This document shows positions 26,754 through 64,000 of a stretch of DNA of 64,000 nt, piece by piece. Below the pieces are notes generated by a model. The model had not been told where the DNA came from and did no database searches. It worked only from the letters and a program-made list of their open reading frames with translations. The stretch is from a virus (lineage: Duplodnaviria; Caudoviricetes): positions 1 through 64,000 of the IMG/VR virus record IMGVR_UViG_3300009873_000004, one strand, 5' to 3'. The position numbers and the translations under genes are program-made. Numbering within the stretch: position 1 is the stretch's first letter; every line of letters begins with the position of its first letter.

Positions 26754-27755
26754 TTAGCTTTCTGTCAACACCTTCTCCAGCCGGGTGATGACCTCCGGCC
26801 AGCGATAGCGAGCGGCCGTGTCCGGCCCGGTTTTGGCGAACTTCTGGCGCAGATCGCGGTCGTGGTTGAGCCGTTCCAGCGCCTTGACCAGCCCGAGCGC
26901 GTCATCGGCCACCAGGCAGTTTTCCTCCGGCTGGAGGTACTCATGGTTGCCATGGCTGTCAGTCGTGACGACCGGCGTGCCGCAGGCCATGGCCTCTAGC
27001 GCGGTCAGGTTGAAGCCCTCGTGCTGGGAGGTGGACAGGAAGGCCTGGCAGCTTTGATAGAGCTTGAGCACCGCGTCGTCGGGCGGGCGCGAGAAGTGCT
27101 GGGAGACCGGCACGATCATGGGCAGTTTCTTGTCCAGCCCGTAGGTGATGATCTTGCCCCCGCTCTGGGTGATGTAGCGGATGCACTCGCACAGCAGGTC
27201 CCAGCCCTTGAGAGCCTGCATCCGGGCGCAGGCCAGGAAGACTCCGCCATGACGCTTGTCCTTCTTGGGAGGCCGCCAATCATTCCCCAGCCCGATGCCG
27301 ATGTGCAGGGTGCCCGGCAGTTGCGCTTCCACCCAGCGGCTGGTCGTCACCTGAAGCAGGCCCATCTCATACGTCTGCATGACCTGCTTGGCCCACACCG
27401 GCTGGGAAGTGTACGACGTCTCCACGTCCTGGATCAGATAGACGCCCTCGTCCTGCTGGGCGGCCTGGTCGACGATGTAGGCCGTGCGCCAGTAGGTCGC
27501 CATCTTCCAGCCGCGCTGCTTTTGAAGCAGCACCCCCAGCGGCTGGTAGTCAGCGATCGTGCCGGTCTTGAAGAAGTCGACCCACTTGACCTGCGGGTCG
27601 AGCTTGAACCAGTCGGTCAGGGTCTCGCGCTTATTGACCGACCAGATCGTCACCGGCCACTCACGCCGCGACAGGCGATTGGCGATCTCGCCCACCACCC
27701 GCACGCCCCCGGCCAGGCTGCCGGTCTCCAGGACGATGTGGACCGGGCGCTTCAC
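26754..27755 (-). CDS. glycosyltransferase, GT4 (GT-B)
   Basis: SLAGGVRV N-terminus; FLSTSQHEGFNLTALEAMACGTPVV motif. Confidence 0.92.
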   Translation of the reverse strand: MKRPVHIVLETGSLAGGVRVVGEIANRLSRREWPVTIWSVNKRETLTDWFKLDPQVKWVDFFKTGTIADYQPLGVLLQKQRGWKMATYWRTAYIVDQAAQQDEGVYLIQDVETSYTSQPVWAKQVMQTYEMGLLQVTTSRWVEAQLPGTLHIGIGLGNDWRPPKKDKRHGGVFLACARMQALKGWDLLCECIRYITQSGGKIITYGLDKKLPMIVPVSQHFSRPPDDAVLKLYQSCQAFLSTSQHEGFNLTALEAMACGTPVVTTDSHGNHEYLQPEENCLVADDALGLVKALERLNHDRDLRQKFAKTGPDTAARYRWPEVITRLEKVLTES

Positions 27756-28591
27756 GCCGCCACCTGTTCGTCAAAGGCCCGCTGGCGCTCCAGGGCAGCC
27801 TGGATGTAATCGGTCATGTAGCGCGGGTGGGTGCCGCTGAAAGGCTGGAACTCTCCCCGGCTGGCGGCCACGTCGAAGACGCGCATGTAGTCGAGATACC
27901 CCTGCTCCCACTGGGCCTTGACCTTGGGATCGGGGAAGCCCAGTTCGGTGTAAAGCTCCTGGAAGGAGCGCTCCTTCTCCAGCGCCTCGGGCATGCGCCC
28001 GGTGTGGACCTTGCCGTAGTGCATGATTTGCAGGCGGGTCTGCCATTCGGCCCCGCCGCCCAGGGCGCAGGCATCCCCGCCCTTGCCGGTGTCATAGCGC
28101 AGCCCGGCGTGCGTGCGCGAGAGCACCGCCTTGGAGTCATAGATAAACGGGAAGGTGGTCCCAAAGTCCGGGCAGAAGTGAGTGTAGGTTGGCCGCCCGA
28201 GCGGCACCCGCCGCAGGGCCATCGAGCCCAGGTCGTGCCGGAAGGCTTCGAAGCTGGCTTCGTGGATGACCTCGTCGGCGTCGAGCTTGAGCGCGAACTC
28301 ATAGCGCGTGCCGATCTCGTTCAGCAGGAAGTTGCAGATGTAGGCCTGGATGGTGTGGTGGTCGCCCCAGGGATGGCGGCGCAGGTTGAGTTCGCCGTTG
28401 GCGATCTCGCGGTTGAAGCGGGTGGTGATGCGCAGCAGCGAGTCGTCAATGCTGTCGCACTCGCCGTAGTAGACCGCCCCCTGCCCGTTCACAAAGCGCG
28501 TCAGGTCCAGGGCGCTCTCGATCGACTCCAGATAGGGATAGCGGATCTTCTCAAGGTTGTGCCCGAACAGGTAAACCGCAAGCGTGTCCAT
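27752..28591 (-). CDS. glycosyltransferase-like protein (GT-A)
   Basis: YPYLESIES, ECDSID, LDADE (DxD), IMHYG. Confidence 0.7.
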   Translation of the reverse strand: MDTLAVYLFGHNLEKIRYPYLESIESALDLTRFVNGQGAVYYGECDSIDDSLLRITTRFNREIANGELNLRRHPWGDHHTIQAYICNFLLNEIGTRYEFALKLDADEVIHEASFEAFRHDLGSMALRRVPLGRPTYTHFCPDFGTTFPFIYDSKAVLSRTHAGLRYDTGKGGDACALGGGAEWQTRLQIMHYGKVHTGRMPEALEKERSFQELYTELGFPDPKVKAQWEQGYLDYMRVFDVAASRGEFQPFSGTHPRYMTDYIQAALERQRAFDEQVAA

Positions 28592-28593
28592 GC

Positions 28594-29298
28594 CTATTCT
28601 CCTGGTCCGGTGAAGATGAGCGGGCGAACGTAATCGGGCAAGGGCTTGATAATTCCGAGCTTGTGGGCGTTCTCTACCCGACCGATGTACTCATGCCAGG
28701 GTCCGATCCCGATCTCGCCCTGGTGAACCTGATAGCGCCAGCCCTTGGCGATCAACTTCTCGCGAGAGGCGCAGGAGGTGTGGTCGAAGAAGTACACCCC
28801 CTGAGCCAGCATCTTGATCCTGAGCTTCTCAGCCTGTGGCTCGGTATGCACTCGCTGGGAAAAATGGACGCCCGGCAGGCGCTTGAAGAGCCGCTGGGCC
28901 GGTCCTTCGCCTCCGGCGTGGTGATAGCGGTCCAGGATAGTCGACCACTTCAAGAACTCCCAGATGTGCCCGTCGCGCCAGTTGGAGGTGCGCAGCCACT
29001 CGGCGAAGTTGCTGGTGAAGGTCTCGTCAGCGTCCAGGTAAAGGATCCATTCTGAGGTGAGCGGCTCAAGAGCCAGATTGCGAAGTTTTCCGTGATGGCT
29101 ATGACGATGCTCGTGCTGTAGCACGATGTTGAGTCGGGATCGAAATGACTCAACAATGGCAAGAGAAGCATCGGTGCTCCCATTATCGACGATCGAGAGG
29201 GTGCCCAGCAGGTCGCCCAAGGAGCAGAAGCTCTCCAGGGCGTAGGGCAGCAGTTCTTCTTCGTTGAGCAGGATCAGGAAGGCATCCAGCAGGCTCAT
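28594..29298 (-). CDS. glycosyltransferase, GT2
   Basis: LNEEELLP, IVDNGSTDAS, RNLAL, WILYLDADE. Confidence 0.9.
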   Translation of the reverse strand: MSLLDAFLILLNEEELLPYALESFCSLGDLLGTLSIVDNGSTDASLAIVESFRSRLNIVLQHEHRHSHHGKLRNLALEPLTSEWILYLDADETFTSNFAEWLRTSNWRDGHIWEFLKWSTILDRYHHAGGEGPAQRLFKRLPGVHFSQRVHTEPQAEKLRIKMLAQGVYFFDHTSCASREKLIAKGWRYQVHQGEIGIGPWHEYIGRVENAHKLGIIKPLPDYVRPLIFTGPGE

Positions 29299-29564
29299 TT
29301 CACACAGATCGCGGTGGCCGGGAAGAGCGGGTCGAGCGTGACCCGCAGCCCGTAAATCATCTCCACGTCCACCGTCCCAAAGTGATACTCCAGGGAGATC
29401 GGATTGATCACCAGTTCGACCGGGACCTGGCCGAAGTTGGCATGGTGATCCAGGATCACCCGGACCAGATCGTACATGCGCTCAAAGCGAGTCAGGCGGC
29501 GCGTGAGTTCCTGGTGGCTCGCCACCGCCTCCAATTCCTCCAAGACCAAGTTCGCCGGTTCCAT
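29295..29564 (-). CDS. hypothetical protein
   Basis: RBS GAGG before MEPANL; ATGA overlap with the GT2 gene. Confidence 0.6.
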   Translation of the reverse strand: MEPANLVLEELEAVASHQELTRRLTRFERMYDLVRVILDHHANFGQVPVELVINPISLEYHFGTVDVEMIYGLRVTLDPLFPATAICVK

Positions 29565-31014
29565 ATTCGCCTCGCGCTCCAATGTCGGACTCTCTCACCC
29601 CCCAGTCCATAATATCCACCTGCTTGAGTTTCTTGCCCCCCGCCTTCAGTTCATAGCGGCTCGACGCCCACTTGAGCAGCCGCTCGATCAGCCATTTCTC
29701 CAGCCGGAAGTGGGTAAAGAAGCGCTTGCGCCAGCGCCAGGAGGCCAGGGCTTCAAGCGGCCAAATAAATGCCCGTCGCCAACCTGGAAAGTTGCGTTCA
29801 GTTTTGTCGCCGCGACCACGATGAAAATGCAGTCCGCCGATGTGATACAGGTTAGAGGCCCGCACGTCCAGGGTCTGGTTGAGTGAATAGTTGGACCACT
29901 CTGCCATTGTTTGGGGCAGGGAATCCGGATCCACCAACTCAAATAGCGGACTGCCAGGGAGCGCCACATAGGCGTAAAAGTTCTGCGTAAGTCGGCCGTC
30001 ATGGATACGATTGAGCCGATCCGCCTGGTCCAGAGTCTCATTGATCTCCTCGGGAGTCTCGGTCGGGAAGCCGGTGATCCAGTAATACAAGGGCCAGATG
30101 CCGTGGTTGGCGAGCGCCTGCGCACAGCGAACCTGGTCGTCCCGCGTAATGTCTTTCTCTGTGAGTTCGAGCATCCGCTTGCTGGCCGTCTCCATGCCGA
30201 TGGAGATGTGCTTGATGCCCATGTCGGCCATTTCGCGAGCCACTTCATCTGTGACCTGGTGGGCTCGGATCGACGGGCGGTACTCAATGCCAAGGTCCCG
30301 CAGGTAGCGGATGATCTCTCGGGCTCGGGGCCAGCGACCAATCCAATCGTCACCATGCTCGTATTTCCTGACGCCAGCGTTCTCCAATAGATACTTTACA
30401 TCCCACTTCCAGCGATCCAGGTCGACCGATTGCCAACTGCGCTCGAAGAACTGCTGGATGTAGCAGAAGCCGCACCGAAACGGGCAACCCCTGGACGTCA
30501 TCAAGACGCTGTCGCCGGTTCGGGCGGAACGACGAAAGTGAAGGAGGGTGTGTGGACTAACCGGGGAAACATGGTCAGCAGTTCCTGACAGATGTCCATG
30601 GGCACGTTGTTTAGGTCCACCGTGTATAGCTTCAAGGACTGCCCACTCTCCCTCTGAAAGAACCACAGCGTCAACGTAGTCTTCTGCCAGGCACTGGTCG
30701 GGCTGCATGGTGACATGGATACCGCCCAGGATAGTTCGCTTGCCATGCGCCTTGGCTCCTTTGAGGATCTCGATCGCGCCCTGTAACTGGTAGCCCGTCA
30801 TCGACGACACGCCTACCACGTCCGGCCAGGACAGGTCCGGCCAGGGATCGTAGCGCCCATCCCAATAGCGCACGTCGTAGGTCTCATCGCTCTTGCCCCT
30901 GGCTTTTGCTTCGACCAGCGCCTGGCCGACGTGCAGGATCGAAAGCGGCGGGCTCTTCTGCGGCGAGCTAACCGATGGTCGCGGGTAGGCCAGCAGGACT
31001 TTAGTCGTGCCCAT
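29482..31014 (-). CDS. B12-binding radical SAM enzyme (class B methylase-like)
   Basis: PPLSIL...VVGVSSMTG...ILGGIHVT cobalamin-binding domain; SRGCPFRCGFC (CxxxCxxC); GMETAS; ITGFPTET. Confidence 0.92.
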   Translation of the reverse strand: MGTTKVLLAYPRPSVSSPQKSPPLSILHVGQALVEAKARGKSDETYDVRYWDGRYDPWPDLSWPDVVGVSSMTGYQLQGAIEILKGAKAHGKRTILGGIHVTMQPDQCLAEDYVDAVVLSEGEWAVLEAIHGGPKQRAHGHLSGTADHVSPVSPHTLLHFRRSARTGDSVLMTSRGCPFRCGFCYIQQFFERSWQSVDLDRWKWDVKYLLENAGVRKYEHGDDWIGRWPRAREIIRYLRDLGIEYRPSIRAHQVTDEVAREMADMGIKHISIGMETASKRMLELTEKDITRDDQVRCAQALANHGIWPLYYWITGFPTETPEEINETLDQADRLNRIHDGRLTQNFYAYVALPGSPLFELVDPDSLPQTMAEWSNYSLNQTLDVRASNLYHIGGLHFHRGRGDKTERNFPGWRRAFIWPLEALASWRWRKRFFTHFRLEKWLIERLLKWASSRYELKAGGKKLKQVDIMDWGVRESDIGARGEYGTGELGLGGIGGGGEPPGTHAPPDSL

Positions 31015-31936
31015 CGGCAATACTTTCCAGATAGCTGTCCCAGCGCCGGACGGTGATGCCCGGATCGAAATGGGTCAGTGTCCAATTGTAGGCCGGGTCG
31101 ACCATTTCCAGGTAGGGAGCCGGGTCCCTCAGAAAGGCGTGGATGTGGTTGACGAACTCTTCCGAGTTGCGGGCGAAGTGGGCGAAGCCGCCCGTCGTCT
31201 CGCGCAGGGCCGGAATGTCCTGGCATATGACCGGCACCCTGCCCATCTGCGCCTGGGCGACGGAGGTGCAGCAGCACTCGTCCCGTGTGGGGAAGACGAA
31301 CAACTTCAGGTTGCGATAGAAGATCTTGGGGTTGACCCAGCCGGTGATCAGGCAGTTGGACGGCGCTCGCTTCTGGCAGACTTCCAGCAACGGCCCGTCT
31401 CCGGCTAGGGCAAAGGGCTGTGCTGCAAAGACCCAGGCCAGGGCGATAAACTCCAGCGGGCACTTCTCGTCCGCCAGGCGGCTGAGTTTTCCGATCACGG
31501 TCGGGGTTACTTCCGGATCGCGTTCCATGCGCTCAACGATCGCGTAGATCGTGGTGCGGTTGGGCATGCGCAGGTTGCGCTCGGAGGCCAGATGGCTCAT
31601 CGCCACAAAACCGTCCACCAGTTCGGGCGGGGTCGGGCTGGCCGCGATCGAGTGCATGCACTCCACGAACTTCGCCCCCCACTCGTGCGCCAATCTGGCG
31701 TTGTCGGCATAGCTCCAGCCGCCAACCGTGTGGCCGACGACGACTTTGTAAGTGCTCTTGAGTTCTTCCGGGGGTCCGCCTGGGAATAGGCGCATGCCCT
31801 CCAAGCGCATCTGCTCGGCCATTGAGCCATCCGCCGCCCAGAAGTCGTGAACATGCTTGGAGTGCCGGTGCAGGCGCAGCAGGTTGGCCTGGATGCCGCC
31901 CCTATGACTCACGTCGAGACAATGAAGAATATTCAT
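31001..31936 (-). CDS. glycosyltransferase, GT4
   Basis: MNILHCLD...RGG start; LFVFPTRDECCCTSVAQAQMGRVPVI variant of the EGFG..EA motif; ATGA overlap with the HNH stop. Confidence 0.85.
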   Translation of the reverse strand: MNILHCLDVSHRGGIQANLLRLHRHSKHVHDFWAADGSMAEQMRLEGMRLFPGGPPEELKSTYKVVVGHTVGGWSYADNARLAHEWGAKFVECMHSIAASPTPPELVDGFVAMSHLASERNLRMPNRTTIYAIVERMERDPEVTPTVIGKLSRLADEKCPLEFIALAWVFAAQPFALAGDGPLLEVCQKRAPSNCLITGWVNPKIFYRNLKLFVFPTRDECCCTSVAQAQMGRVPVICQDIPALRETTGGFAHFARNSEEFVNHIHAFLRDPAPYLEMVDPAYNWTLTHFDPGITVRRWDSYLESIADGHD

Positions 31937-32545
31937 TCCTTCCACGACCTGCCAACAATAATGGCACTAATGTTTGCCCGTTTGACGCCATAGTTGTCAG
32001 CCAACTGCTGCTGTGTCATCACACGCTCCTTGTAGAGCCTGCGTATTTCTCGCACATCATCCCAGGTCAAAACCGCCCTGGCCGCATTTTCCCCTCTCGG
32101 GTAAGGCGTCTTGCGATTTTTCTTGACTCGCCCCAGGCCATTATCTGTGGCCCGCTTGATATTTTCTAGCTGAGTTACCGGCTCCAGATTGGACGGACAA
32201 TTGTTGTGCTTATTGCAGTCCTTGTGATCGATCTCAAGATCGTCAATAACATCCCCAAAAAAGTAGATGTAGACCACTCGATGCGCCGAGGCCTTGATCG
32301 ACTGCCCGTCCTTGAATGTCGAAAGCCTAAGATAGCGCCCAGCATTCTCTGCTCGCTTTGGCTTTTTGAGTCTGATCCTTCCAGCAAACGGATGGATCCA
32401 CCAATGACGCCAGATTCGGCCTTCATCATCAATCGATAGTGTTCCATTTTGGACCAGACTCAGAAAGAACTTCTCCCCAGGTCGCATTGTCATCTCCTTG
32501 GTAAAAGATGACAATAGTATACAGCAAATGGTGGTATTCAGAAAG
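31901..32545 (-). mobile_element. free-standing HNH element 2 inserted in the GT4 5' end, carrying a recoded replacement start
   Basis: AT-rich 645-bp segment flanked by two versions of MNILHCLD.S.R with different synonymous codons. Confidence 0.85.
31933..32487 (-). CDS. HNH homing endonuclease with C-terminal HTH
   Basis: AHRVVY...IDHKDCNKHNNCPSNLEPVTQLEN; LTWDDVREIRRLY...QQQLADNYGV; RBS AAGGAG; TATACT upstream. Confidence 0.9.
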   Translation of the reverse strand: MRPGEKFFLSLVQNGTLSIDDEGRIWRHWWIHPFAGRIRLKKPKRAENAGRYLRLSTFKDGQSIKASAHRVVYIYFFGDVIDDLEIDHKDCNKHNNCPSNLEPVTQLENIKRATDNGLGRVKKNRKTPYPRGENAARAVLTWDDVREIRRLYKERVMTQQQLADNYGVKRANISAIIVGRSWKE

Positions 32546-32581
32546 CCGGTTGGAATTGTCCAGGCAGTGCAGGATATTCAT
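32546..32581 (-). pseudogene. orphaned original 5' end of GT4 (MNILHCLDNSNR)
   Basis: ATGA overlap with the upstream MTase stop; GC-rich codons ATC CTG CAC TGC CTG GAC. Confidence 0.8.
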
Positions 32582-33231
32582 TTCTTGATCCCCAGCCACC
32601 AGATGACGACCGGATGCAGGCCATCGGGCGGCGTGTTCCAGGAAGGCACTTCCTGCTGCGCCAATCGCACCGGGATCCACTCGCCCGTCATGCCCCGGCT
32701 GATCTTCGAAGCGTACAGTTCCTGGATGATTGCCCGGTTCCCCCAACTGCCGAACTCGACCGTCTCCCACCAGAGCTCCGGGAAGAGAAAGCGGTAGCCG
32801 TCAGGCGAGATCCGCCAGCAGTCCAGGGGAGCCGGGTGAGTTGGATGCAGGTAAGGCGTGGCGACGATCGCCAGCCCACCCGGCTTCAAGACCTTGTAGA
32901 TCTCCAGCGCAGCAGCGAAGATGTTTTGCACATGCTCCAGCACCTGGTCGACGATCAGCACGTCCCAATGGCCGGTCCACTCATTGGGCAGAATCTGAAT
33001 GTCGATCTGTGGGTAGTCACATACCTGGGCCTCCACCCGCTGGCCGTGCAGGGACTTGAGCATGCGAATGATCGACGTCGTCGGCTCCCTGGCCCCGATC
33101 TCCATCACCCGCAAAGGATCGGCCAGCATCATCGTCCGCTTGAGAGTCGCGAAGATGCGCTCGTACATGACATGGCGCACCAGGTCGTGGTGCGCCCAAG
33201 AGCCATCAATCGGCCGCCAGATGTCGCTCAT
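32578..33231 (-). CDS. class I SAM-dependent methyltransferase
   Basis: VMEIG, D...DQVLEHV, YKVLKPGG..IVATP, H..P.DCWR. Confidence 0.85.
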   Translation of the reverse strand: MSDIWRPIDGSWAHHDLVRHVMYERIFATLKRTMMLADPLRVMEIGAREPTTSIIRMLKSLHGQRVEAQVCDYPQIDIQILPNEWTGHWDVLIVDQVLEHVQNIFAAALEIYKVLKPGGLAIVATPYLHPTHPAPLDCWRISPDGYRFLFPELWWETVEFGSWGNRAIIQELYASKISRGMTGEWIPVRLAQQEVPSWNTPPDGLHPVVIWWLGIKK

Positions 33232-33812
33232 GCTCGCCCCAGCAACATCCCGTTCCAGTCCAGCCAGTGGCAATGTCGGTAAATGGGGTCTTGGTGAATG
33301 TGGGCCTGGATCTGATCGCTCAGTGCATGCTTGTGAATGCCGTGCTGGCCGAACTTCTCCAGCCAGTATTCCTTGGTCGCTTCGCCGTAATGCCCCTCAC
33401 CCCCCTGCCCCGGCCGGGCCGCCGAGAAGTAGATCAGCGGAGCGCACTTGACCAGGGTAGCGACCAGCGTGTCGTGAAACTCGAAGTGCAGGTGCTCGCC
33501 GACTTCGATGCACAGGGCTAGATCAAAGACTTGGGGCGGGTCCCAGGCGGCCCGTAGATCAACAATTTGGAACTCTTCTGGAGCCACGGATTCCCCGCCT
33601 GCCGGACAGCCGTCGATCGCCAGGACCTGGCAACCACGTTCCTTGAATGGGACGAGATAAATGCCCGGCCCAGCGCCCACATCAATAACAGACTTAGGCT
33701 GAAGCCGGTCATGCAGTAAAGCGCCCAGCGCCATGGCTTGCTCAGTTTCATGTTTGAGCACCTCCTTCATCAGCCAGGTGTATTCTTCGAGATTGAAATA
33801 GCGCTCGGTCAT
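33228..33812 (-). CDS. class I SAM-dependent methyltransferase
   Basis: VIDVGAGPG, FDLALCIEVGEHL, YFSAARPGQGGEGH. Confidence 0.88.
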   Translation of the reverse strand: MTERYFNLEEYTWLMKEVLKHETEQAMALGALLHDRLQPKSVIDVGAGPGIYLVPFKERGCQVLAIDGCPAGGESVAPEEFQIVDLRAAWDPPQVFDLALCIEVGEHLHFEFHDTLVATLVKCAPLIYFSAARPGQGGEGHYGEATKEYWLEKFGQHGIHKHALSDQIQAHIHQDPIYRHCHWLDWNGMLLGRA

Positions 33813-34021
33813 GCCAGCCTCGCCCAGGTCTCCACCGCCAGCTTGAAACGATCGAAGTCTGGATGGGCGCGGTGGATCGAGTAGGTCGCCACCTCTTCGC
33901 CGTTTGCCAGCAGGAAGTGCGCCCGCAGCATGATCCCGTCGTCGCGCATCTCGACCTTATCGGCTTCGATGTGCAGGTGCTTGCCGTCGATCCTCCGTCC
34001 TTTGAAGACGAACTCTTTCAT
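33809..34021 (-). CDS. hypothetical protein
   Basis: 70-aa ORF coupled by ATGA overlaps. Confidence 0.6.
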   Translation of the reverse strand: MKEFVFKGRRIDGKHLHIEADKVEMRDDGIMLRAHFLLANGEEVATYSIHRAHPDFDRFKLAVETWARLA

Positions 34022-34263
34022 CTTTCCCTCAATGGAGTTGCCGGATTGTCTACGTACAGTTGCATTTCTCCTATCTTACCCAGCATTTCTTTGGACGTTT
34101 TCAAGAGAGATGCGTACATTTCCCTGAAGTAAGGCGATAGGAGCAGTTGTTGCTCCTTGCCAAACATTTCCGAACCAACATTCACGGTCTGCCTAACAAG
34201 CCCCATGAAGACTTTCAGAAACTCCTCGTCACTTTCGTTTACGTCGATTCTGACAGTCTTCAT
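34018..34263 (-). CDS. hypothetical protein (AT-rich)
   Basis: MKTVRIDV start overlaps the GT stop. Confidence 0.55.
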   Translation of the reverse strand: MKTVRIDVNESDEEFLKVFMGLVRQTVNVGSEMFGKEQQLLLSPYFREMYASLLKTSKEMLGKIGEMQLYVDNPATPLRER

Positions 34264-35159
34264 CCGAACACCTCCCGCAGTTCCAGAGTTGTAGCCTCGG
34301 CTGTGTAGCACAGGCTCCAGTCATAGGCCTGCTGGCGGATCCGCTCGCGAGCAGTCTCATCCCCGCGCAGGAGCTTGAGCCCGTCGACCACTTCAGCCAC
34401 AAAGCGCGAGGGCGAGCCGTGCCCGCCGTTGTCGGGATCCTGCACCACCCAGGCCGTCTCGCGGTGGAACATGAACTCGTTTCCGCCACCCCCGGTCGTG
34501 CCGACCACCACCGCCCCCGAGCGCATCGCTTCCAGGCAGGCCATCGGAAAGCCTTCCGGGTGAGTCAGGTGGGCGTAGTAGTCGCATTCGGCCAGCAGGT
34601 CGGCCAACTGGGCCTGGGTCTGCGGCTCGGTCACGTAGACCACGCCAAAGCCTTCGGCCTCCAGCGCCACTTTGAGCATCTGGTGGTAGGGATTGCGCCG
34701 GGCCATGACCAACACCCAGTTCTTCTGCTTGATGCCCACGCGCCAGGGAGAGAGTTCCAGGAAAGGCGTCACCTTGCGCAGGGCCTTGACATCGAAGACG
34801 CGCTGCATGTGGTTTGCCAGGAAGCGCGAGCAGACCAGCACCTCGCCCGGATCGCGCAGAAACTCCAGCCGGTCTAGCCAGACGTAGTTCTGCACGAAAC
34901 ACAACGAGCGCACCCCGTCACGATGGATATGCGGCCAGAGCACTTCCGGCACCACCAGCACATCCCCCTGCCCCAGGCGGATCTCGGTCGTCAGATACCG
35001 GCGCGGAATGGGATTAGCATCCCACCAGGCCAGGTAGTCGTTCGTCTTCTGCCAGGCCAGGGCGGGCAGACCGGCCTGGTTGAGCAGATCCACCAACTTG
35101 TAGAGAAACCAGACTCCGCCTGAAGGCGTGTCGGGTTTGGGCACATGAAAATAGATCAC
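34260..35159 (-). CDS. glycosyltransferase, GT4-like
   Basis: PSGGV N-terminus; VVPE; FVQN; HPEGFPMACLEAMRSGAVVVG. Confidence 0.88.
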   Translation of the reverse strand: MIYFHVPKPDTPSGGVWFLYKLVDLLNQAGLPALAWQKTNDYLAWWDANPIPRRYLTTEIRLGQGDVLVVPEVLWPHIHRDGVRSLCFVQNYVWLDRLEFLRDPGEVLVCSRFLANHMQRVFDVKALRKVTPFLELSPWRVGIKQKNWVLVMARRNPYHQMLKVALEAEGFGVVYVTEPQTQAQLADLLAECDYYAHLTHPEGFPMACLEAMRSGAVVVGTTGGGGNEFMFHRETAWVVQDPDNGGHGSPSRFVAEVVDGLKLLRGDETARERIRQQAYDWSLCYTAEATTLELREVFG

Positions 35160-35449
35160 CGAACGACCACCTTTCGAGTCCGAGGCCTGATTCCCAGCAG
35201 GCGAGCCCAGAATCCCGGATCGTCATCTTCATAGTCGGTTGCCTCAAAGCGCACCTGGCCCGGACGCTCAGGTGCTCGCTCGTCGACGCTGGCTCCACAT
35301 TCTTGACACTTGATCTGTCTCTTCTGACTGCCGCAGTAGGCGCAGATCCGCTCCAGACCCTGGTAATTCGGCCAGATGCGTAGGGTTGCCATTGAACCCG
35401 AGGTCGGCACATAACTCAACGCTGGCTGGTCAACATAGATAACGCTCAT
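35156..35449 (-). CDS. hypothetical Zn-ribbon protein
   Basis: CAYCG...CQECG. Confidence 0.6.
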   Translation of the reverse strand: MSVIYVDQPALSYVPTSGSMATLRIWPNYQGLERICAYCGSQKRQIKCQECGASVDERAPERPGQVRFEATDYEDDDPGFWARLLGIRPRTRKVVVR

Positions 35450-36288
35450 CCTGCCTCCATCCCGCCTGCGTGCATGCCCTGGGCGCTAAAACGCATGAAG
35501 TCCAGGCCGGTCCACTTCTGAAAGAGAAAGGCCAGCGAGTGCGCTTCCTTCTCGGCTACCTCCGGCTCCAGCGCCAACTTCTCCTCCAGCGTCCGTCCCC
35601 GGCTTGCGCCTTCCTGGTGAATGGCGTGGGTGTAGCCCAGATAGACGGGCGGCATGCCGCACTGGAAGGACCGCAGGCCCAGGTCGATGTCCTCGGCCGT
35701 AAAGCCGAAGCGCCGATCCAGGAGCCCTGAGCGCATGATGAACTCGCGGGAGACTCCCAATAGCGCTCCCGTCACCAGCCCGGTGCGCATCACCACCGCG
35801 TCTGGATCGAGCGCGTCTTCAAAGCGACACAGGTGGTCGAAATACCCAGGCAGCGGGCCTTCAGGCGTGGGCACAAAGACCACCCCGGCATGCTGGATGC
35901 GCAGGTCCGGATACAGCAGGCGGCAGCCGATCACCCCGGCTCGCAGCTTCGTTTGCGCGTCGGCCAGCACCTGGAGCGACTCTTCGGTGAAGAGGATGTC
36001 GTTGTTGACCAGGAAGACCGAATACTCGCCGTTGGCCCGCTCGATCCCGGCGTTGCAGGCGGCGGCAAAGCCCTCCCGCTCGATCCGGACCAGTTCCACC
36101 TCGAACTCGGTCGCCAGGGCCTGGAGCAGGTCAAGCGCTTCGCCGTCGTCGCCGTCCGAGACGATAAAGGTCTCGGGGAACATGTGGTCGTGCGTCTGGC
36201 GCAGCGATGTCAGGCAAGCGCGGGTCAACTTCGCCCCCTTGACGCCGTAAGTCGGGATGACGACCGAGGCCCAGGGAGTCTCGATCAT
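35446..36288 (-). CDS. glycosyltransferase, GT2
   Basis: SVVIPTY, VSDG, GFAAACNAG, FLVNND, IQHAG, VTGA, AEDIDL. Confidence 0.92.
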   Translation of the reverse strand: MIETPWASVVIPTYGVKGAKLTRACLTSLRQTHDHMFPETFIVSDGDDGEALDLLQALATEFEVELVRIEREGFAAACNAGIERANGEYSVFLVNNDILFTEESLQVLADAQTKLRAGVIGCRLLYPDLRIQHAGVVFVPTPEGPLPGYFDHLCRFEDALDPDAVVMRTGLVTGALLGVSREFIMRSGLLDRRFGFTAEDIDLGLRSFQCGMPPVYLGYTHAIHQEGASRGRTLEEKLALEPEVAEKEAHSLAFLFQKWTGLDFMRFSAQGMHAGGMEAG

Positions 36289-37280
36289 GGCGCGTTCCCC
36301 CACAACACCTGCTCATAGCGGTCGACGTTGCGGTGCATCAGATGATCTCTGGCCCAGGCCAGGCCTTCCTCGCGCAGTTCCCGCCGCAGGCTATTCTCCG
36401 TACAGATCCGGCGCAGCGCCTTCTTCCAGCCGTCGTTGTCAATCAAGAGACCGCCCTTGGGTTTGTGATAGTAGGCATAGTTGAGAGTCGCCACCCAGGG
36501 CACGCCCGTCCGGGCATACTCCAGCACCTTGAGGTGCGAGCGGTAGCGGTCGTACTGCCCTGAGAGCGGCGCGATCCCGGTTCCAAATTTGGACACTTCC
36601 TGCGGCCAGGCTTCATAGCTGACCCAGGGACGCGAGTCATGCGGAGCCTGGATCAGCGATTGCAGATAGTCGTTGTAGATCACCAGCCGGTGCTCGGGCA
36701 GGCCGACCAGCGCCCTGCCAATCCCGCGACTGATCTCCAGGTTCTGCCAGGTCTGGGCATGCCCGCTCGACCCGCCCCAGCCAATGACCTTGCTGTCCAG
36801 GCTGGCCGCGCCTTCCGGCCAGCAGTCGCCATCCAGAAAATTGCCCAGGAACTGGACCTTGCCGTAGTTGCCGAAATAGCGCACCAGTTCGTGGCTGGGA
36901 ACCACGGAAAGATCCACCAGCGACAGCGCCTTCAAAAAGTTGGGGTAGTTCTGCTTCCAGTAGCGCTTGGCGCTGACGATCTCGGGCATGGCCCCGTAGT
37001 GATCGTCAAAGGTGCAGATGATGCGTTTGGCCCCCGCCAGGCGCAGCTTCTCCACCCGCTCGACGGTCAAGTTGCGCTCGATCAGCACCACCTCGGGCAC
37101 CGGCTCGGTCCAGTCGATGTCGTCGCGAAACTGGCCCAGGCCGTTGATCTGCCAGGTCGCCAGGCGCAGATGGATGGTGTGTCCCGCCTGTTGAAGGTAT
37201 TTGCGAGGAATGTGAATGCGATAGTCGGAGGTGGCCGTCTTTTCGCCCGGCGCATCTCCCTGCAAAAACAGGGCTTCCAA
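36285..37280 (-). CDS. glycosyltransferase (GT-B, GT4-like)
   Basis: TTG start after AAGGAG; YRI..P, TFDD, IGW.GS..H, GIAPL...RYRS.LK.LEY..G.P.VA. Confidence 0.8.
   Translation of the reverse strand: MEALFLQGDAPGEKTATSDYRIHIPRKYLQQAGHTIHLRLATWQINGLGQFRDDIDWTEPVPEVVLIERNLTVERVEKLRLAGAKRIICTFDDHYGAMPEIVSAKRYWKQNYPNFLKALSLVDLSVVPSHELVRYFGNYGKVQFLGNFLDGDCWPEGAASLDSKVIGWGGSSGHAQTWQNLEISRGIGRALVGLPEHRLVIYNDYLQSLIQAPHDSRPWVSYEAWPQEVSKFGTGIAPLSGQYDRYRSHLKVLEYARTGVPWVATLNYAYYHKPKGGLLIDNDGWKKALRRICTENSLRRELREEGLAWARDHLMHRNVDRYEQVLWGNAP
36581..36594. promoter_or_regulatory. 14-bp palindromic site, copy 4 (TTCCAAATTTGGAC), intragenic
   Basis: 13/14 match inside a GT gene; could be chance. Confidence 0.35.
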
Positions 37281-41544: not shown

Positions 41545-44397
41545 TTACCAGGGGGCTTGCCAGCCTGTTTCTGATTCCGTTTCGGCCCAGCCCATGGCCG
41601 CCAGAAGCTCGTCCTCGGAATATTGGGCATCCAGCGAGAGCATCGCCTCGTAGATGACGTAGGTGGCGTGGCGCAGCATGTCGGTGTCGTGGTCGACCAG
41701 GCGCTTCTTGTCGGACGGATCAGGCGGGCCGTAGTAGACCGTGTGACCCGACTGGGTCTTCTTCTCGGTCGTGCCGCCCAGTTCGGACTGGAGATCGGGA
41801 TCCGGACCAAGCCAAAGCTTGCGGCCGGGGAAGGGGGTGACGGCGTTGATCATCCAGTTGCGCAGGCGCTCGGTCGAGAGTTGCTTGTTGGGAATGTTGA
41901 CCGTCTCGGCCTTGCGGGCTTCGTCCGACAGGATCCGGTAGACCTCGGGCTCGCGCTCGCGCAGCTTGTTGACCTCGAAGGTGGTCGAGCCGCCCGGCAT
42001 GAAATGGCGGTAAAGCTCTTCCAGTTCCTCCCCGGCCGCCTGCTTGAGCAGTTGCACGGTCGGCAGGTGGTCGGACGAGAAGCCGACGAACTCGCCGGTA
42101 AAGACCTTGGTGCGCACATGCTGGATGATGTCGATCTGGTGCGGCTGGGCGATGCGGCGCATGGTCAGCTTCACCACCAGCCGCCAGACATCCTCGGCCA
42201 CGTCTTCATCGCTGAGTTGAGCAACCACGCCCAGGACGGATGGATCGGGCGAGTAGCCATAGTCCAGGGCCAGGACAAAGCGCTTGACGCGCTGGCTGCC
42301 GAGCTTGAGGATCAGCCCCAGGTCGCGCATGTCCTCCCGCCCCAGGGCGAAGAGTTCCTGGGTGATGTAGGGGTGCGCCCCAATGGCGATCGAGCCAGGC
42401 GGGAAGGACGAGAACAGTTCCTCGCCCCATTCCCCCAGGACCTGGGTGATGTAGCCGTGGCTCTTCTCCCCGCCGTAGTCCTCGATCAGCTTCTGCTTGG
42501 CTTCTTCCGAGTCGTAGAGCGGGTTGATGTGGGTCGGGTACTTGTGGCGTGACCAGGACTTGCCCCGATCGGTCTGGTCGAGTTCGTAGAAGGGCGAGCG
42601 CCGCACGCCGTTGGGCACGCCCGCCAGCACCCAATGGCAGAAGGGCAGGGCGGTCTGGAGCAGGGAATTGAAGACCGGGTAGGTGCCGAAGGCCTGCTCG
42701 TCGCCCCAGATGTAGTGCGCCCGCAGGCCGACCACGTTGCGGTCGGTGCCCGACAGGCCCTCGATGCGGAAGTAGATCAGCAGCCCGCCCTTGAAGCGCA
42801 GGATCGAGTTGTCGCCGCGCTTCTTTTCGGCCACGAACCCGCCCAGCAGGATGTTGCGATCCAGCCGGTTCCAGACCCGGTCCAGGAAGGGGTTCATGTG
42901 GACGTCGGACGGGGTGAAGAACAGCGCTTCGACCGTGCCTTCCGACTCGGTCAACAGCCCGGTCTGGATGACGTCGGCTTCCAGGTCGATCGTGTTGTGG
43001 GTGATGAAGCCGTTGGCGACAAAATTGTGCGATCCAGGAACGTTCAAGTCGTAAGTCAATTCCTCACCGTCAGGTGTAATCGACTCGATTTCGTCCCAAT
43101 ACACATGCCCATCCGCCAGGTTGATCAGATCTCCAATTCGATTGATCCAGCCAACCTTGAGCGCCTTGCTGCGGGAAACCTCGTAGCTTGATTTCAAACG
43201 AACGCCAGCATTGACTCCGGCCGTGTAAACACCGACGCCGGATTGCTCGATCACCGTCCTGACCAGTTGAAGCGGGATGCGATCGTGCTTGCTGGGTCCG
43301 GATTGAACAGCTAGATCGACAGCCGCCTGGACGGCAGCTTCTTTCGAGAAAATGCCGATCTCACTGGCGAAACGAATAACATCCTGGGAGTCGCAGATTT
43401 CGAGCGAATAACTCACTCCCCCAAGATGCGTCTTTTTTGGATAAATCCTGGCGAAGATCCCAAAACGCAACAGCAGTTCACGCAGATCCTTGATCAATTC
43501 CAGGGAGACGCTGGCGTAACCGATGGAACCCGAGCGGGTGGCATAGCCATCCGTGGCATACAACCTGCTCAAAAAGAGCTTCAGCCCATCTCGACCAAGC
43601 GCGAAGATGGCATCGGGAATGAACTTGGTGTGGCTGTTCTTTCCGTTCAGTCCAAGTTCTACCAGCCGCCGCCTCAAGGGATTGACGATCTCATGGCGTT
43701 TGAATTTCTTGTTTGCCACAACGACATAGTCGTACTTTCCACGCCGCCTGAGCGACAGGTCCCGATCCATTCGGTTGAGCCAGCCGGTGAAGTCCTGCAA
43801 AACATCCGGCGAGGCGGTAGTAAAAACCAGCGTTGATCCCGAGATCCCACCATCCCCCAGCAGATAGGCAACCAGGGCAACCTCGCAATCTTCCAGCCCG
43901 CTGGTGTCTTCCGTGGGCATGGGCATCTTGCGAGCCATGCCAACCAGATCGCCTGGCTTGAGATCTTCGCAGTTGGCCCAGCCGCTACCAGTCAAAAAGG
44001 GATGATTGCCGGAAACCCGAATGCTGGATCCCGATCGTGTTGTCACCTTGAATACCGGAACAACTTCATTAGGCCAGATCTTGGCTTTGGTCGGCCAGAT
44101 ACGCCAATCTCCCGCCAGCGAGGCAACGTCCAATGGACCCTTTTCGATGTGGTCGGCTCGTTGTCGTCTTCCGGTATAGGGATCAACAATCAGCGTATCG
44201 CCCGCAATACACTTGGCGATCTTGCGGCCGGTGCAGTAGAGCTTGCGCGGGCTCTCATCGCACCACATCAACTTCTGTTCCCAGGATGGCTCCAGGGTGA
44301 TCTCGTCCTTGAAGACTTCCTTGCGAAACAGGACCCGGTCGACCAGGACCAGGCCCGCGTAGAAGTCCAGATCGTCCGGAGCGGTTTCAAGGGTCAT
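41545..44397 (-). CDS. terL: terminase large subunit, intein-containing
   Basis: Walker A-like GRKIAK/T, Walker B IWGDE, nuclease LALDYGYSPD...DHDTD. Confidence 0.9.
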   Translation of the reverse strand: MTLETAPDDLDFYAGLVLVDRVLFRKEVFKDEITLEPSWEQKLMWCDESPRKLYCTGRKIAKCIAGDTLIVDPYTGRRQRADHIEKGPLDVASLAGDWRIWPTKAKIWPNEVVPVFKVTTRSGSSIRVSGNHPFLTGSGWANCEDLKPGDLVGMARKMPMPTEDTSGLEDCEVALVAYLLGDGGISGSTLVFTTASPDVLQDFTGWLNRMDRDLSLRRRGKYDYVVVANKKFKRHEIVNPLRRRLVELGLNGKNSHTKFIPDAIFALGRDGLKLFLSRLYATDGYATRSGSIGYASVSLELIKDLRELLLRFGIFARIYPKKTHLGGVSYSLEICDSQDVIRFASEIGIFSKEAAVQAAVDLAVQSGPSKHDRIPLQLVRTVIEQSGVGVYTAGVNAGVRLKSSYEVSRSKALKVGWINRIGDLINLADGHVYWDEIESITPDGEELTYDLNVPGSHNFVANGFITHNTIDLEADVIQTGLLTESEGTVEALFFTPSDVHMNPFLDRVWNRLDRNILLGGFVAEKKRGDNSILRFKGGLLIYFRIEGLSGTDRNVVGLRAHYIWGDEQAFGTYPVFNSLLQTALPFCHWVLAGVPNGVRRSPFYELDQTDRGKSWSRHKYPTHINPLYDSEEAKQKLIEDYGGEKSHGYITQVLGEWGEELFSSFPPGSIAIGAHPYITQELFALGREDMRDLGLILKLGSQRVKRFVLALDYGYSPDPSVLGVVAQLSDEDVAEDVWRLVVKLTMRRIAQPHQIDIIQHVRTKVFTGEFVGFSSDHLPTVQLLKQAAGEELEELYRHFMPGGSTTFEVNKLREREPEVYRILSDEARKAETVNIPNKQLSTERLRNWMINAVTPFPGRKLWLGPDPDLQSELGGTTEKKTQSGHTVYYGPPDPSDKKRLVDHDTDMLRHATYVIYEAMLSLDAQYSEDELLAAMGWAETESETGWQAPW
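42994..44211 (-). mobile_element. intein with LAGLIDADG homing endonuclease (406 aa)
   Basis: Block A CIAGDT, block B HPFLT, LLGDG and LYATDG LAGLIDADG motifs, block F/G TYDLNV...HNFVANGFITHN followed by Thr. Confidence 0.95.
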
Positions 44398-57014: not shown

Positions 57015-57225
57015 TCGCGTGCGAGCCTATCTGGACCCGAACAACACCACCCTCGACTACGTCGATGGCACGATCCAGCAAGACAACTCCTTGTTGGTCA
57101 GCTACGACAACTGGGCGACCGAGTACAAAGATGATCCGATGGTCGCCAATCTGGTCGGCCGCGCTATCCCCTTGAAACCGCATTTCAAAATCGAAAAACT
57201 GGAGGACCAGCATGGAAGATCCTGA
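56995..57225 (+). CDS. hypothetical SH3/KOW-like protein
   Basis: LKPGDRVR...G.I. Confidence 0.6.
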   Translation: MDLKPGDRVRAYLDPNNTTLDYVDGTIQQDNSLLVSYDNWATEYKDDPMVANLVGRAIPLKPHFKIEKLEDQHGRS

Positions 57226-57811
57226 CAATTTCGACACCGAAGCATTCCGCGAGAAGTACAAGGCCGGGATTGACTACGGCCTGGGCATGAGCAACATCGA
57301 CCATGAAAATGGCATCCGCTATGGCGTGATCAGCCAGCACTCGCTGGCGTCCTGGGTCATGGGCGAAGCCGAGCCGATCTATCCGGACTACGAGGTCGAG
57401 GTCGAGTGCGAGCACTGTGAAGAGACCTTCATGGTGACAGACTCGCAGACCAACGACAACGTCACCTGTCCGGAGTGTGGTGAGCAGACCTGGGCCGAGG
57501 GCAACGACTTCATCGAACTGGAGCCGGTCGGCTGGGACCTGGGCATCGACGAAGACGGCTATGAGACCGACTGGAGCGAGACGCTCAACGCCCTGTTCGT
57601 GCTCAAGAGCCCCTACTACACCGAATGCCATTACTGCTCGCCCTGCGCCCCAGGCGCGGGCGATCTGGACAGCCCGATGCCGGGCGGCGTGAAGGCTTAC
57701 GCCTTTGGCCCGGACTTCTTCGACGAGGACAGCCCCTGCCCGTACCCGATCTATTCGGTGGAGACGGGCGAACTGGTGCAGAAAGGCCCCGACGATGTGG
57801 ACGCTGACTGA
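57212..57811 (+). CDS. acidic hypothetical protein with Zn ribbon
   Basis: CEHC...CPECG; CHYCSPC; strongly Asp/Glu-rich. Confidence 0.75.
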   Translation: MEDPDNFDTEAFREKYKAGIDYGLGMSNIDHENGIRYGVISQHSLASWVMGEAEPIYPDYEVEVECEHCEETFMVTDSQTNDNVTCPECGEQTWAEGNDFIELEPVGWDLGIDEDGYETDWSETLNALFVLKSPYYTECHYCSPCAPGAGDLDSPMPGGVKAYAFGPDFFDEDSPCPYPIYSVETGELVQKGPDDVDAD

Positions 57812-61603: not shown

Positions 61604-61950
61604 GCGACGTTCATCTGCTGCACTACGAATGGGAAACGGCCTACGGCTGGCTGCGCGGCAAGTACAGCCTGCCCGATCAGATCTGGAGCCTGCTTTCAAC
61701 CCTGGACAGCGACACGATCCAGGACCAGTTCCAGGACGAGATGGATGCCGACCGCTACTTCGACCTGCTCTTTGACGTCCCCTGCAACGCTTGCGGCAGG
61801 CGAGTCTATTCCGATCCCAATGGCACGGACGACCTTGATGGGCAGGAATGCCGCCGCTGCCGCGCCGTCTACCACAACACTTGCGGCTTCACCGAAGAGG
61901 TCAGCCTGGAAGAGCACATCTGCGACGAATGCCAACGGGAGGACTTGTAA
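61600..61950 (+). CDS. protein with C4HC3 (PHD-like) Zn finger
   Basis: C-x2-C-x18-C-x2-C-x4-H-x2-C-x12-C-x2-C. Confidence 0.65.
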   Translation: MSDVHLLHYEWETAYGWLRGKYSLPDQIWSLLSTLDSDTIQDQFQDEMDADRYFDLLFDVPCNACGRRVYSDPNGTDDLDGQECRRCRAVYHNTCGFTEEVSLEEHICDECQREDL

Positions 61951-62202
61951 ATGGTCATTCTTCTGGAGTACGACAACGGTTGGACGCATGACGACCATCG
62001 CCGCTATCCGCTGGGAATCTTCACCGACGAGGACCAGGCTCGCCAGGCGGCCGTGTTCTACCTGGTAAGCATGCAGGCCGATTGGGGCTGGCACAGTGAC
62101 CACCACTGCCGCCTGGGTTGGTACACCCCCAACTGGGAGTACGGCGAAGCCGGTCCCGGCCGAGTCGTCACTATCCGCGTTCCACCCAAGGAGACCGAAT
62201 GA
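61951..62202 (+). CDS. hypothetical protein
   Basis: Coupled ORF. Confidence 0.6.
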   Translation: MVILLEYDNGWTHDDHRRYPLGIFTDEDQARQAAVFYLVSMQADWGWHSDHHCRLGWYTPNWEYGEAGPGRVVTIRVPPKETE

Positions 62203-62684
62203 GCACCCTGCAAGGCGACATTGAAGACTGTATCCGCGAACTGCGCGAGCGCATTGAAGAGAACCCGGACGAGAGGGAGCCGCACGATTGGATCCACGAG
62301 ATCGCTGACTCGAACGTTCCAATCTACTATTCCGACATCCTCCAGTATGCCGCCGATGACATCGACCTGGCAACGGCCGAGCCCGAGATTGGCCCGGCCT
62401 TTGACGGCTCGCCCACGCCGATCAACGTCATCGCCGCCAACATTTTCGACCGGCTGGAAGAGGCCCTCTGGGAAGAGTGGCGCAGGTTTGAAGACCAGCG
62501 CGACGAAGCGCCCGAATGCGCCATCTGCTACGAGAAGGTCTTCGAGTGGCAGGACTCGATCGTCTGCACCGTTGCCGACTGCGAGGAGGTCATTCACCAG
62601 GACTGTGACACCCCCAAAACACCCGACCCCTATTTCTGCGACACCCACCTGCCCGAGGAACCCGATGACGACGAAACTGACTAA
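62199..62684 (+). CDS. ocr: Ocr (T7 gp0.3)-like DNA-mimic anti-restriction protein with C-terminal Zn finger
   Basis: HDWIHEIADSNVPIYYSDIL...IDL...IFDRL...LWEE matches the T7 Ocr core [20 protein letters not shown]...IDL...IYEQL...LWED; acidic; RBS AAGGAG. Confidence 0.8.
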   Translation: MSTLQGDIEDCIRELRERIEENPDEREPHDWIHEIADSNVPIYYSDILQYAADDIDLATAEPEIGPAFDGSPTPINVIAANIFDRLEEALWEEWRRFEDQRDEAPECAICYEKVFEWQDSIVCTVADCEEVIHQDCDTPKTPDPYFCDTHLPEEPDDDETD

Positions 62685-62931
62685 AGACACCGCCCACGCC
62701 TCGATCGACCGCAACTTCGCCCGCGTCCAGGTCGGCGACCTGGTGCTGTGGTTCTCCTACCAGACCCTGATCGGCTTCTGGGACACCGAGAAGGTCGCCA
62801 TCCAGAACTACTGGAACAAGACGACCGGCAAGCACCTGAACACCTTCAGCGACAAGGCCGACCGGGTCAACCGGGAGACCTTCGACGCCAAGTGGGCCGA
62901 AGTGCTCAAGAAACACAAGCTGGTGGGCTGA
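62665..62931 (+). CDS. hypothetical phage early protein
   Basis: LWFSYQT.I.F...NYW..TTGKHLN. Confidence 0.7.
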   Translation: MTTKLTKDTAHASIDRNFARVQVGDLVLWFSYQTLIGFWDTEKVAIQNYWNKTTGKHLNTFSDKADRVNRETFDAKWAEVLKKHKLVG

Positions 62932-63267: not shown

Positions 63268-64000
63268 ATGACCCACAACCGCTATGAAGAGATCCTGCCC
63301 AAGCTGAGAGGCCGCCAGGGCATGGCCCCCAGCCGCAAGCTGGAGAACAACACCTACGCCATTCAGGGCGAGGACGAGATCGAAGTGCGCCTGCACGGCC
63401 ACACCATCCTGGTGCTCTATCCGGACAGCTCCGTGAAATACGATAGCTGTGGCTGGAAGACCGTCACCACTAAGGCCCGGCTCAACCGCTACGGCCAACC
63501 AGGCGTCGTCATCTCCCAGAAGGGCGGCCAATGGTTCATCGGCAAGGGTGGCTACCGGAACGAAGCCGACTGGATCCCCTTTGAAGACGGCATGACGATT
63601 GGGCCAGGCGGCCAGTTGCCCCTTCCCAGCCAACCGGCCGTCGACGCGAAGACCCTGCGCAAGCAGGTGAAGAAATACGTCAAAGCCTTCATGGTGGCCC
63701 TGACCACCGGCCAGGTGAACGTCCCCGGCCCCGGCGACTGCTTTTACTGCGCCATGGTCACAGAAGACGGCCAGACGCTGGGCGAAGCCAGCCACGGTTC
63801 CGACCACCTCCAGAGTCACATCGAGCAGGACTACTTCGTGCCTTCGCTCCTGGTGCGCGCCCTGGAGGTCATGCCAACCTCAATTGCCGCCAGGCACAAC
63901 GTCTGGGCTTACATGCAGCAGGCCGACGCGGACCAGTTCTATCCGGCTGCGGACTTCCTCGACAAGCAGATCGAGAAGGCCCTCTGCCGCTACGTGCTGC
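63268..64000 (+). CDS. hypothetical phage early protein, truncated by the window end
   Basis: RBS AGGAG; KLENNTY...VRLHGH.I...GWKTVTTKARLN; no stop before 64000. Confidence 0.75.
   Translation, partial: MTHNRYEEILPKLRGRQGMAPSRKLENNTYAIQGEDEIEVRLHGHTILVLYPDSSVKYDSCGWKTVTTKARLNRYGQPGVVISQKGGQWFIGKGGYRNEADWIPFEDGMTIGPGGQLPLPSQPAVDAKTLRKQVKKYVKAFMVALTTGQVNVPGPGDCFYCAMVTEDGQTLGEASHGSDHLQSHIEQDYFVPSLLVRALEVMPTSIAARHNVWAYMQQADADQFYPAADFLDKQIEKALCRYVL

Follow-up and report, generated by a model that had tools for sequence, protein, structure and literature searches.

Ocr, the gene 0.3 protein of phage T7, is a textbook DNA mimic that inhibits type I restriction-modification (R-M) and BREX and triggers PARIS. 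It has 34 Asp and Glu residues among its 116 residues, and the view so far has been that it consists of one domain plus an acidic tail that can be dispensed with. Residues F54 and L82 lie at the dimer interface (PMC10802264). The joint loss of five acidic residues (E59, D62, E64, E66, and D67) abolishes activity, and a form truncated after residue 99, which lacks the last 17 residues, keeps its anti-restriction activity (PMC3439906). Thus, a domain added at the C-terminus should be tolerated. The Ocr dimer mimics about 24 bp of DNA, compared with about 42 bp for the dimer of ArdA, whose outer domain projects past M.EcoKI towards HsdR (PMC2731889). We searched the full-text literature for an Ocr with a zinc finger, for Ocr-like fusions, and for phage-encoded fingers of the PHD or prokaryotic RING type, and this architecture was not described in what we found; given the incomplete coverage, this is absence of evidence only.

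Here, we describe P0001, a protein encoded by an uncultured phage. Judging from sequence comparison, it is an Ocr-family mimic with a putative zinc-binding tail, and the PHD-type, eight-ligand form of this tail is rare, being known from two sequences (P0001 and its relative P0045).

The P0001 gene in its phage genome

The window, i.e., the whole stretch of DNA analyzed here, comprises the first 64 kb (64,000 nucleotides) of an IMG/VR record that is 83,826 bp long and has direct repeats of 144 bp at its ends. Between 1.8 and 47.7 kb, the − strand is filled with genes for the virion, lysis, and glycosyltransferases, and a long array of small, mostly orphan genes occupies the + strand from 48.9 kb to the end of the genome. 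An integrase is encoded at positions 388 to 1296. The phage is uncultured and 84 kb in size; it is integrase-bearing and not T7-like, as stated in the preliminary description of this DNA. No close phage relatives were found via the putative portal or two neighboring genes.

Several other features of this genome were observed. On the − strand, a 950-aa protein (41545 to 44397) contains an intein splicing domain and a LAGLIDADG endonuclease (Pfam E 1e-18 to 2e-20), and the intein host protein shows a faint helicase-like PHROG match and nothing else. A cluster of GT1- and GT2-type glycosyltransferase genes (26754 to 36303, − strand) lies inside the virion-gene strand, and a B12-binding radical SAM enzyme is encoded within it (29482 to 31020, − strand). 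A 199-aa acidic early protein encoded at 57212 to 57811 on the + strand has two CxxC...CxxC zinc-ribbon motifs. Further small early proteins with zinc ribbons are encoded, for example, at 71835 to 72314 and 76738 to 77439 of the full record, outside the window.

The P0001 gene lies about 13 kb into the + strand run of small genes. No promoter-like or convincing terminator-like site was found within the tightly packed + strand genes between 57 and 64 kb. The open reading frame occupies positions 62199 to 62684 of the + strand, exactly as described before, with an ATG at 62199, a stop codon at 62682 to 62684, and 161 codons for amino acids. A Shine-Dalgarno sequence, AAGGAG, can be read at 62188 to 62193 (+ strand), 5 nt upstream of the ATG, and the start overlaps the TGA of the preceding gene (61951 to 62202) as ATGA. 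The GC content at third codon positions (GC3) in the P0001 frame is 0.73 to 0.90 between 62199 and about 62650, a range that includes the finger, and it stays at 0.8 to 0.9 in the same frame across the junction between the Ocr domain and the finger. Past about 62650, the signal moves to the +1 frame of the following gene (ATG at 62665). The ribosome-binding site, the ATGA overlap, and the continuous single-frame GC3 show that P0001 is a real gene. A longer open reading frame in another frame (62221 to 62931), the choice of a crude gene caller, was rejected as the following gene read back through P0001.

P0001 is highly acidic, with 47 Asp and Glu residues against 10 Lys and Arg residues overall, which gives a net charge of about −37 per monomer. 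It ends in a short acidic C-terminal tail, LPEEPDDDETD (62649 to 62681, + strand), which overlaps the start of the following gene. Among the neighbors of P0001, the only one with any family match is a 251-aa protein encoded at 63268 to 64000 (+ strand, extending to 64023 in the full record), which matches the Kyanoviridae Gp96 domain (PF23790) with 31.1 bits, the cut-off being 27.

The Ocr domain and its subfamily

Residues 1 to 103 of P0001 (62199 to 62507, + strand) are a genuine member of the Ocr family and have its fold, as seen with Pfam, the PDB, AlphaFold, and Foldseek, and the domain is a predicted DNA mimic. The Pfam Ocr profile (PF08684), which had been proposed as a check, matched residues 19 to 93 with 27.8 bits (cut-off 25, E 3.7e-6) and scored 27.1 bits in a six-frame search of the genome. 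PHROG 2568, "ocr-like anti-restriction," matched with an E of 2.7e-8, and T7 Ocr chains in the PDB, 1S7Z among them, matched residues 18 to 96 with E values of 6e-6 to 1e-5. Thus, the likeness to Ocr that had been described for the first 110 residues or so is real but spans about 100 aa. In an AlphaFold model built with 40 homologs, the pLDDT was 94 to 98 over residues 1 to 100, except at residues 61 to 70, where it was 78; the long helix of the model comprises residues 74 to 103. When this model was compared with the PDB using Foldseek, the best eight matches were all T7 Ocr (prob 1.0, target-normalized TM 0.59 to 0.71), either on its own or in complex with BrxX/PglX, AriA, a methyltransferase of type I, or RNA polymerase. 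The best structural matches in BFVD were phage Ocr-like proteins.

The interface residues F54 and L82 of T7 Ocr align with L48 and I78 of P0001, positions that are hydrophobic in nearly all of the 40 aligned homologs. Three of the five critical acidic residues of T7 Ocr are kept (D53, D56, and E61), with D54 and E63 as extra acidic neighbors. In total, residues 1 to 103 contain 29 Asp and Glu residues against 8 Lys and Arg residues.

The closest relatives of P0001 form a large, metagenome-only subfamily. The profile search recovered 485 subfamily proteins at an E below 1e-5, some of them on contigs of 30 to 128 kb, and a tblastn search of GenBank phages with P0001, P0045, and P0120 gave no match. 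Thus, the presence of an Ocr-like gene outside T7-like phages, to which attention had been drawn earlier, is nothing special in itself.

The hallmark of the subfamily is an invariant loop, GPAFDG (G65 to G70; 62391 to 62408, + strand), which is present in all 40 aligned homologs. The motif [GS]PAF[DG]G was found in 133 of the 134 members retrieved, and the loop together with the start of the helix forms the near-invariant stretch EPEIGPAFDGSPTPxNIIAANIYE (residues 61 to 84; 62379 to 62450). T7 Ocr has no GPAFDG motif, and the loop of the subfamily carries three extra residues. Such strict conservation of a motif is odd for a protein working by charge pattern alone; a loop of this kind is not usually expected in a charge mimic, and it hints at some specific contact absent from T7 Ocr.

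Two further observations concern individual members. P0127, a subfamily protein with a C4 zinc-ribbon tail, was deposited as a hypothetical protein of a metagenome-assembled genome of Candidatus Hodarchaeales (an Asgard archaeon), on a 12-kb contig; its source could be a virus of a Hodarchaeales host or a binning error. In addition, P0058, P0126, P0054, and P0108 are longer (224 to 324 aa) and have in common an acidic extension with the motif AGSWV.DGN, and two of the four also end in a CxxC...CxxC ribbon. Thus, larger fusions of the Ocr-like mimic exist.

The eight-ligand module and other zinc-type tails

The C-terminal part of P0001 contains an eight-ligand Cys/His module (residues 107 to 150; 62517 to 62648, + strand) with the pattern C-x2-C-x12-C-x4-C-x4-H-x2-C-x10-C-x2-H (C4HC2H), which is exactly as claimed in the preliminary description. 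The ligands are C107, C110, C123, C128, H133, C136, C147, and H150, and the segment has 18 Asp and Glu residues against 2 Lys and Arg residues. When a relaxed PHD regular expression was applied to the six-frame translation of the 83.8-kb genome, two matches were obtained, P0001 and a second early protein, P0002. No match was found in 200 shuffles of the six-frame set or when the residues of the tail itself were shuffled 200,000 times, and the pattern is thus far beyond chance.

In a first, word-based homolog search, the fusion of Ocr and finger appeared to be a singleton. This was overturned when the profile search found P0045, a 162-aa protein from a separate 33.6-kb assembly that is 58% identical to P0001 and collinear with it over the full length. 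P0045 keeps all eight finger ligands and every spacing, and the in-frame combination of Ocr with an eight-ligand module, correctly said to be absent from T7 Ocr, is therefore preserved in a diverged protein. The identity between P0001 and P0045 is about 48% over the 74-residue C-terminal segment that includes the finger; by simple arithmetic, the chance of keeping all eight ligands at this level is about 0.3%. Several non-ligand residues of the finger and its acidity are also conserved. Because all eight ligands are kept at about 48% identity, the finger is real and under selection.

These results bear on the view that the tail is an artifact, either because its Cys and His residues cluster by chance or because a frameshift or an assembly error has joined two genes. 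The sole support for it is the low model confidence for the tail. The GC3 signal stays in the P0001 frame through the finger, so the tail is not a frameshift artifact; moreover, the pattern is absent from all shuffles, and P0045 encodes the same collinear fusion in a separate assembly. Thus, the artifact is already refuted.

No further copies of the finger were found by scanning finger patterns over IMG/VR, JGI metagenomes, and GTDB genomes, where the DNA-level pattern allowed Asp alone at one Glu/Asp position and was narrower in scope to that extent. When the finger alone was searched against 1.84 billion representatives with HMMER, no relative was found in any other protein context; the lone match (E 9.8e-4) was a spurious one to a Cys-free repeat protein.

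The finger had been called "PHD/RING-like," of which the first half holds only at the level of the ligands. With Cys128 at position 4 and His133 at position 5, the ligand order is of the PHD type, and the order and first five spacings fit; the last ligand is a His, and the last loop is short, with 10 residues. Above-threshold profile matches were not obtained. P0001 scored 11.5 bits with PHD (PF00628; cut-off 24, E 0.32), 15.8 bits with zf-HC5HC2H (PF13771; cut-off 29.1, E 0.016), and 14.2 bits with zf-RING_2 (PF13639; cut-off 27.3, E 0.05). The scores of P0045 were likewise all below the cut-offs (SLX1_C, E 6.7e-4; zf-HC5HC2H, 16.4 bits, E 0.01; PHD, 15.2 bits, E 0.022). In a phmmer search of the PDB, six finger ligands were in register with the Pygopus PHD (2VP7; E 0.04 to 0.2). 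The structures nearest to an ESM Atlas model of residues 100 to 161 were PHD_NSD, PHD_Pygo, PHD, Prok-RING_1, and small phage proteins (TM 0.51 to 0.63). Structure prediction, another of the checks proposed earlier, was confident for the Ocr part and of low confidence for the finger (pLDDT 50 to 69 in the full AlphaFold model); the finger folded alone gave a pLDDT of 58 and a pTM of 0.30, which is unusable. Thus, the finger has a PHD-type signature at the ligand level and is a candidate member of the PHD family; in the predicted cross-brace topology, ligands 1, 2, 5, and 6 would bind one zinc ion and ligands 3, 4, 7, and 8 the other.

PHD fingers and zf-HC5HC2H resemble the P0001 finger in how the ligands follow one another (C4-H-C2 with Cys or His as the last) and in most of the spacings between them. 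Unlike the setting of PHD fingers, the host here has no histone tails, and the P0001 finger gives no evidence of a peptide-binding groove. Prok-RING_1 (PF14446) is a small bacterial or phage domain of the cross-brace zinc type, as the P0001 finger may be, and it is a look-alike in the ESM Atlas by features and structure; however, its profile gave no hmmscan match to P0001 even at an E up to 1.

A RING identity was rejected, as C4HC2H does not fit the RING orders C3HC4 or C3H2C3, with His at position 4. The related proposal is that P0001 is a RING-like E3 ligase, or a decoy, directed against a bacterial ubiquitin-like defense pathway. Weak sub-threshold matches speak for it (zf-RING_2, FANCL_C, and, for P0045, SLX1_C). 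Against it are the ligand order, the failure of any score to reach a Pfam cut-off, and the absence of any Ubl, E1, or E2 family match among the about 30 of some 135 genes scanned. We consider this proposal very improbable.

P0002, the other protein matched by the PHD expression, is an acidic early protein of 116 aa encoded two genes upstream of P0001 (61600 to 61950, + strand). Its C-terminal C4HC3 PHD signature (61783 to 61932) reads C-x2-C-x18-C-x2-C-x4-H-x2-C-x12-C-x2-C and includes an AVYHNTC stretch. Aligned with hhalign, the two fingers have all eight ligands in register, with an E of 0.08 and a probability of 0.7%; neither BLASTP nor hhalign detected significant similarity. The P0002 finger may be a sister module of the P0001 finger, although the sequences are not significantly similar. 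No homolog of P0002 was found among 5.8 billion clusters, and it had no PDB match.

Cys-rich tails are found elsewhere in the subfamily. At least four Cys residues follow the long helix in 17 of the 133 retrieved members with the GPAFDG motif (about one in eight), and 114 of the 133 are without a Cys-rich tail. Most of the tails are C4 ribbons (CxxC-x17-24-CxxC); the others are one DnaJ-like CxxCxGxG tail, two or three intermediate forms, one tail with 10 Cys residues, and the two eight-ligand proteins. The distance from the invariant Gly to the first Cys is 39 to 45 residues in 15 of the 17, which puts the start of the tail where the long helix ends; in the remaining two (254 and 324 aa), the Cys clusters are far downstream. 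All 17 tails are acidic, with 9 to 24 Asp and Glu residues against 2 to 6 Lys and Arg residues in the 15. The C4-tailed members P0120, P0127, P0057, and P0122 have a core about 50 to 60% identical to that of P0001 and an acidic Cys-rich module at the same place, right after the long helix. They differ in having four Cys residues (predicted to bind one zinc) rather than eight ligands, in showing no detectable similarity in finger sequence, and in falling into separate groups on the core tree.

On a tree of the cores only, P0001 pairs with P0045. The tree requires 11 changes of tail state, at least four of which are forced by well-supported branches; label shuffles gave a mean of 16.3 changes, and none of 500 was as low as 11. 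These figures are rough, since the tree is built from a small number of columns and many of its forks are unresolved. The PHD-type tail was absent from all 73 IMG/VR Ocr loci. Two candidates were rejected in the course of this survey: an apparent match of locus L002 up to residue 145 proved to be a tail without Cys, and P0120, considered as a second Ocr gene on the L002 contig, is not located there.

Possible roles of the tail

In the explanation that we put first, P0001 would be an Ocr-family protein that is made early and counters restriction in the cytoplasm. If it behaves like T7 Ocr, two Ocr domains would pair through the hydrophobic interface to form a rod covered with carboxylates. This rod would fill the DNA-binding groove of defense enzymes that track along DNA, such as the methyltransferase cores of type I R-M systems and the PglX-type enzymes of BREX, and would thereby compete out phage DNA. 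The long helix would point outward from the dimer interface for about 25 residues. The zinc-type module begins four residues beyond the end of this helix, and I78, the counterpart of T7 L82, is placed at the interface near its start; therefore, we infer that a finger sits at each distal tip of the dimer. The strongly acidic module, probably with two zinc ions bound, would be a rigid, zinc-stabilized substitute for the floppy acidic tail of T7 Ocr. Such a cap would lengthen and stiffen the mimic past about 24 bp and might reach parts of the target outside the central groove, as ArdA, the functional precedent for a lengthened mimic, does. A dimeric DNA mimic with zinc-stabilized acidic caps at both tips is the best reading of the data, and we give it about an even chance.

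The distribution of tails agrees with this reading. A generic acidic cap is favored because unrelated acidic zinc modules interchange at one position, and the family-wide picture suggests such a cap over one specific partner. What counts against a cap is that modules of the PHD, RING, and zinc-ribbon kinds typically serve as adaptors that bind other proteins. In addition, the occurrence of a second early protein with the same ligand signature (P0002) suits a docking role no less well than that of a passive cap. The GPAFDG loop and the low confidence of the finger models also weigh against this explanation.

As proposed in the preliminary description, P0001 might instead be an anti-defense protein in two parts, in which the Ocr domain blocks DNA-binding defenses and the finger is an independent protein-binding adaptor. 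It might dock on another defense component, a basic-tailed hub protein, or a partner common to P0002. The PHD-type ligand order, the usual role of such fingers, and the PHD, Pygopus-PHD, Prok-RING_1, and small phage proteins among the ESM Atlas neighbors all point this way. So does P0002, 250 bp upstream, in which the canonical C4HC3 signature follows an N-terminal domain of another kind, and the repeated gain and loss of tails would suit host-specific accessory modules in an arms race. However, the tails are of unrelated types, always acidic and mostly at one position, which argues against one conserved partner. The fingers of P0001 and P0002 are not significantly similar, the search of 1.84 billion representatives placed no relative of the finger in another protein, and the genes neighboring P0001 are all orphans from which no partner can be identified. 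An independent adaptor is, in our estimation, somewhat unlikely.

A narrower form of the same idea is that this phage lineage uses the PHD-type finger as a portable docking module, present on at least two early proteins (P0001 and P0002), to bind a defined host peptide or hub protein. We regard it as improbable. If it were true, P0001 would be a tethered, bifunctional anti-defense protein and the first description of a functional PHD-like "reader" from a virus of bacteria, and the zinc tails of Ocr proteins would be exchangeable specificity modules that retarget one scaffold to different defense systems.

Alternatively, the zinc module could be an element of folding or stability alone, protecting against proteolysis or capping the long helix without touching the target. 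The 114 members without a Cys-rich tail and the tolerance of T7 Ocr to tail deletion (PMC3439906) are consistent with this, as is the frequent need of very small domains for zinc to fold. However, eight ligands, several other residues, and acidity have been kept between P0001 and P0045 despite the divergence of their C-terminal segments, and acidic zinc tails have been gained repeatedly at the same site, which points to selection beyond stability. A role in stability alone is improbable. A role of the finger as a shield against PARIS sensing was rejected as unlikely, since AriA takes hold of Ocr on the face with the dimer interface (PMC10802264), a long way from the tip where the finger is placed by inference.

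Thus, a large uncultured Ocr subfamily repeatedly swaps the acidic tail for small acidic zinc-type modules, the rare eight-ligand finger included. If these modules lengthen the mimic or add targets, that would account for the adaptation of a single scaffold to various defense enzymes. Constructs with and without the tail would also be simple probes of which portions of the type I and BREX enzymes extend past the central groove for DNA. The P0001 finger, a putative cross-brace, would join the small number of fingers of that type known from viruses of prokaryotes.

Among known systems, T7 Ocr (PF08684, 1S7Z) is the closest to P0001. The two are alike in family and fold, in their very acidic surface, and in having hydrophobic residues at the positions of the T7 dimer interface, and each is encoded in a dense group of small genes whose strand is not that of the virion genes. 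They differ in that the identity is about 26 to 30%, T7 Ocr has an unstructured acidic tail in place of the eight-ligand module, and the T7 gene is the first of a 40-kb T7-like genome, whereas P0001 lies deep in a run of small genes. ArdA (Tn916 Orf18) has an unrelated fold, with three alpha-beta domains per monomer and no zinc site. Like P0001 in the cap reading, it is an acidic, dimeric anti-restriction mimic, and its outer parts extend past the methyltransferase groove towards HsdR.
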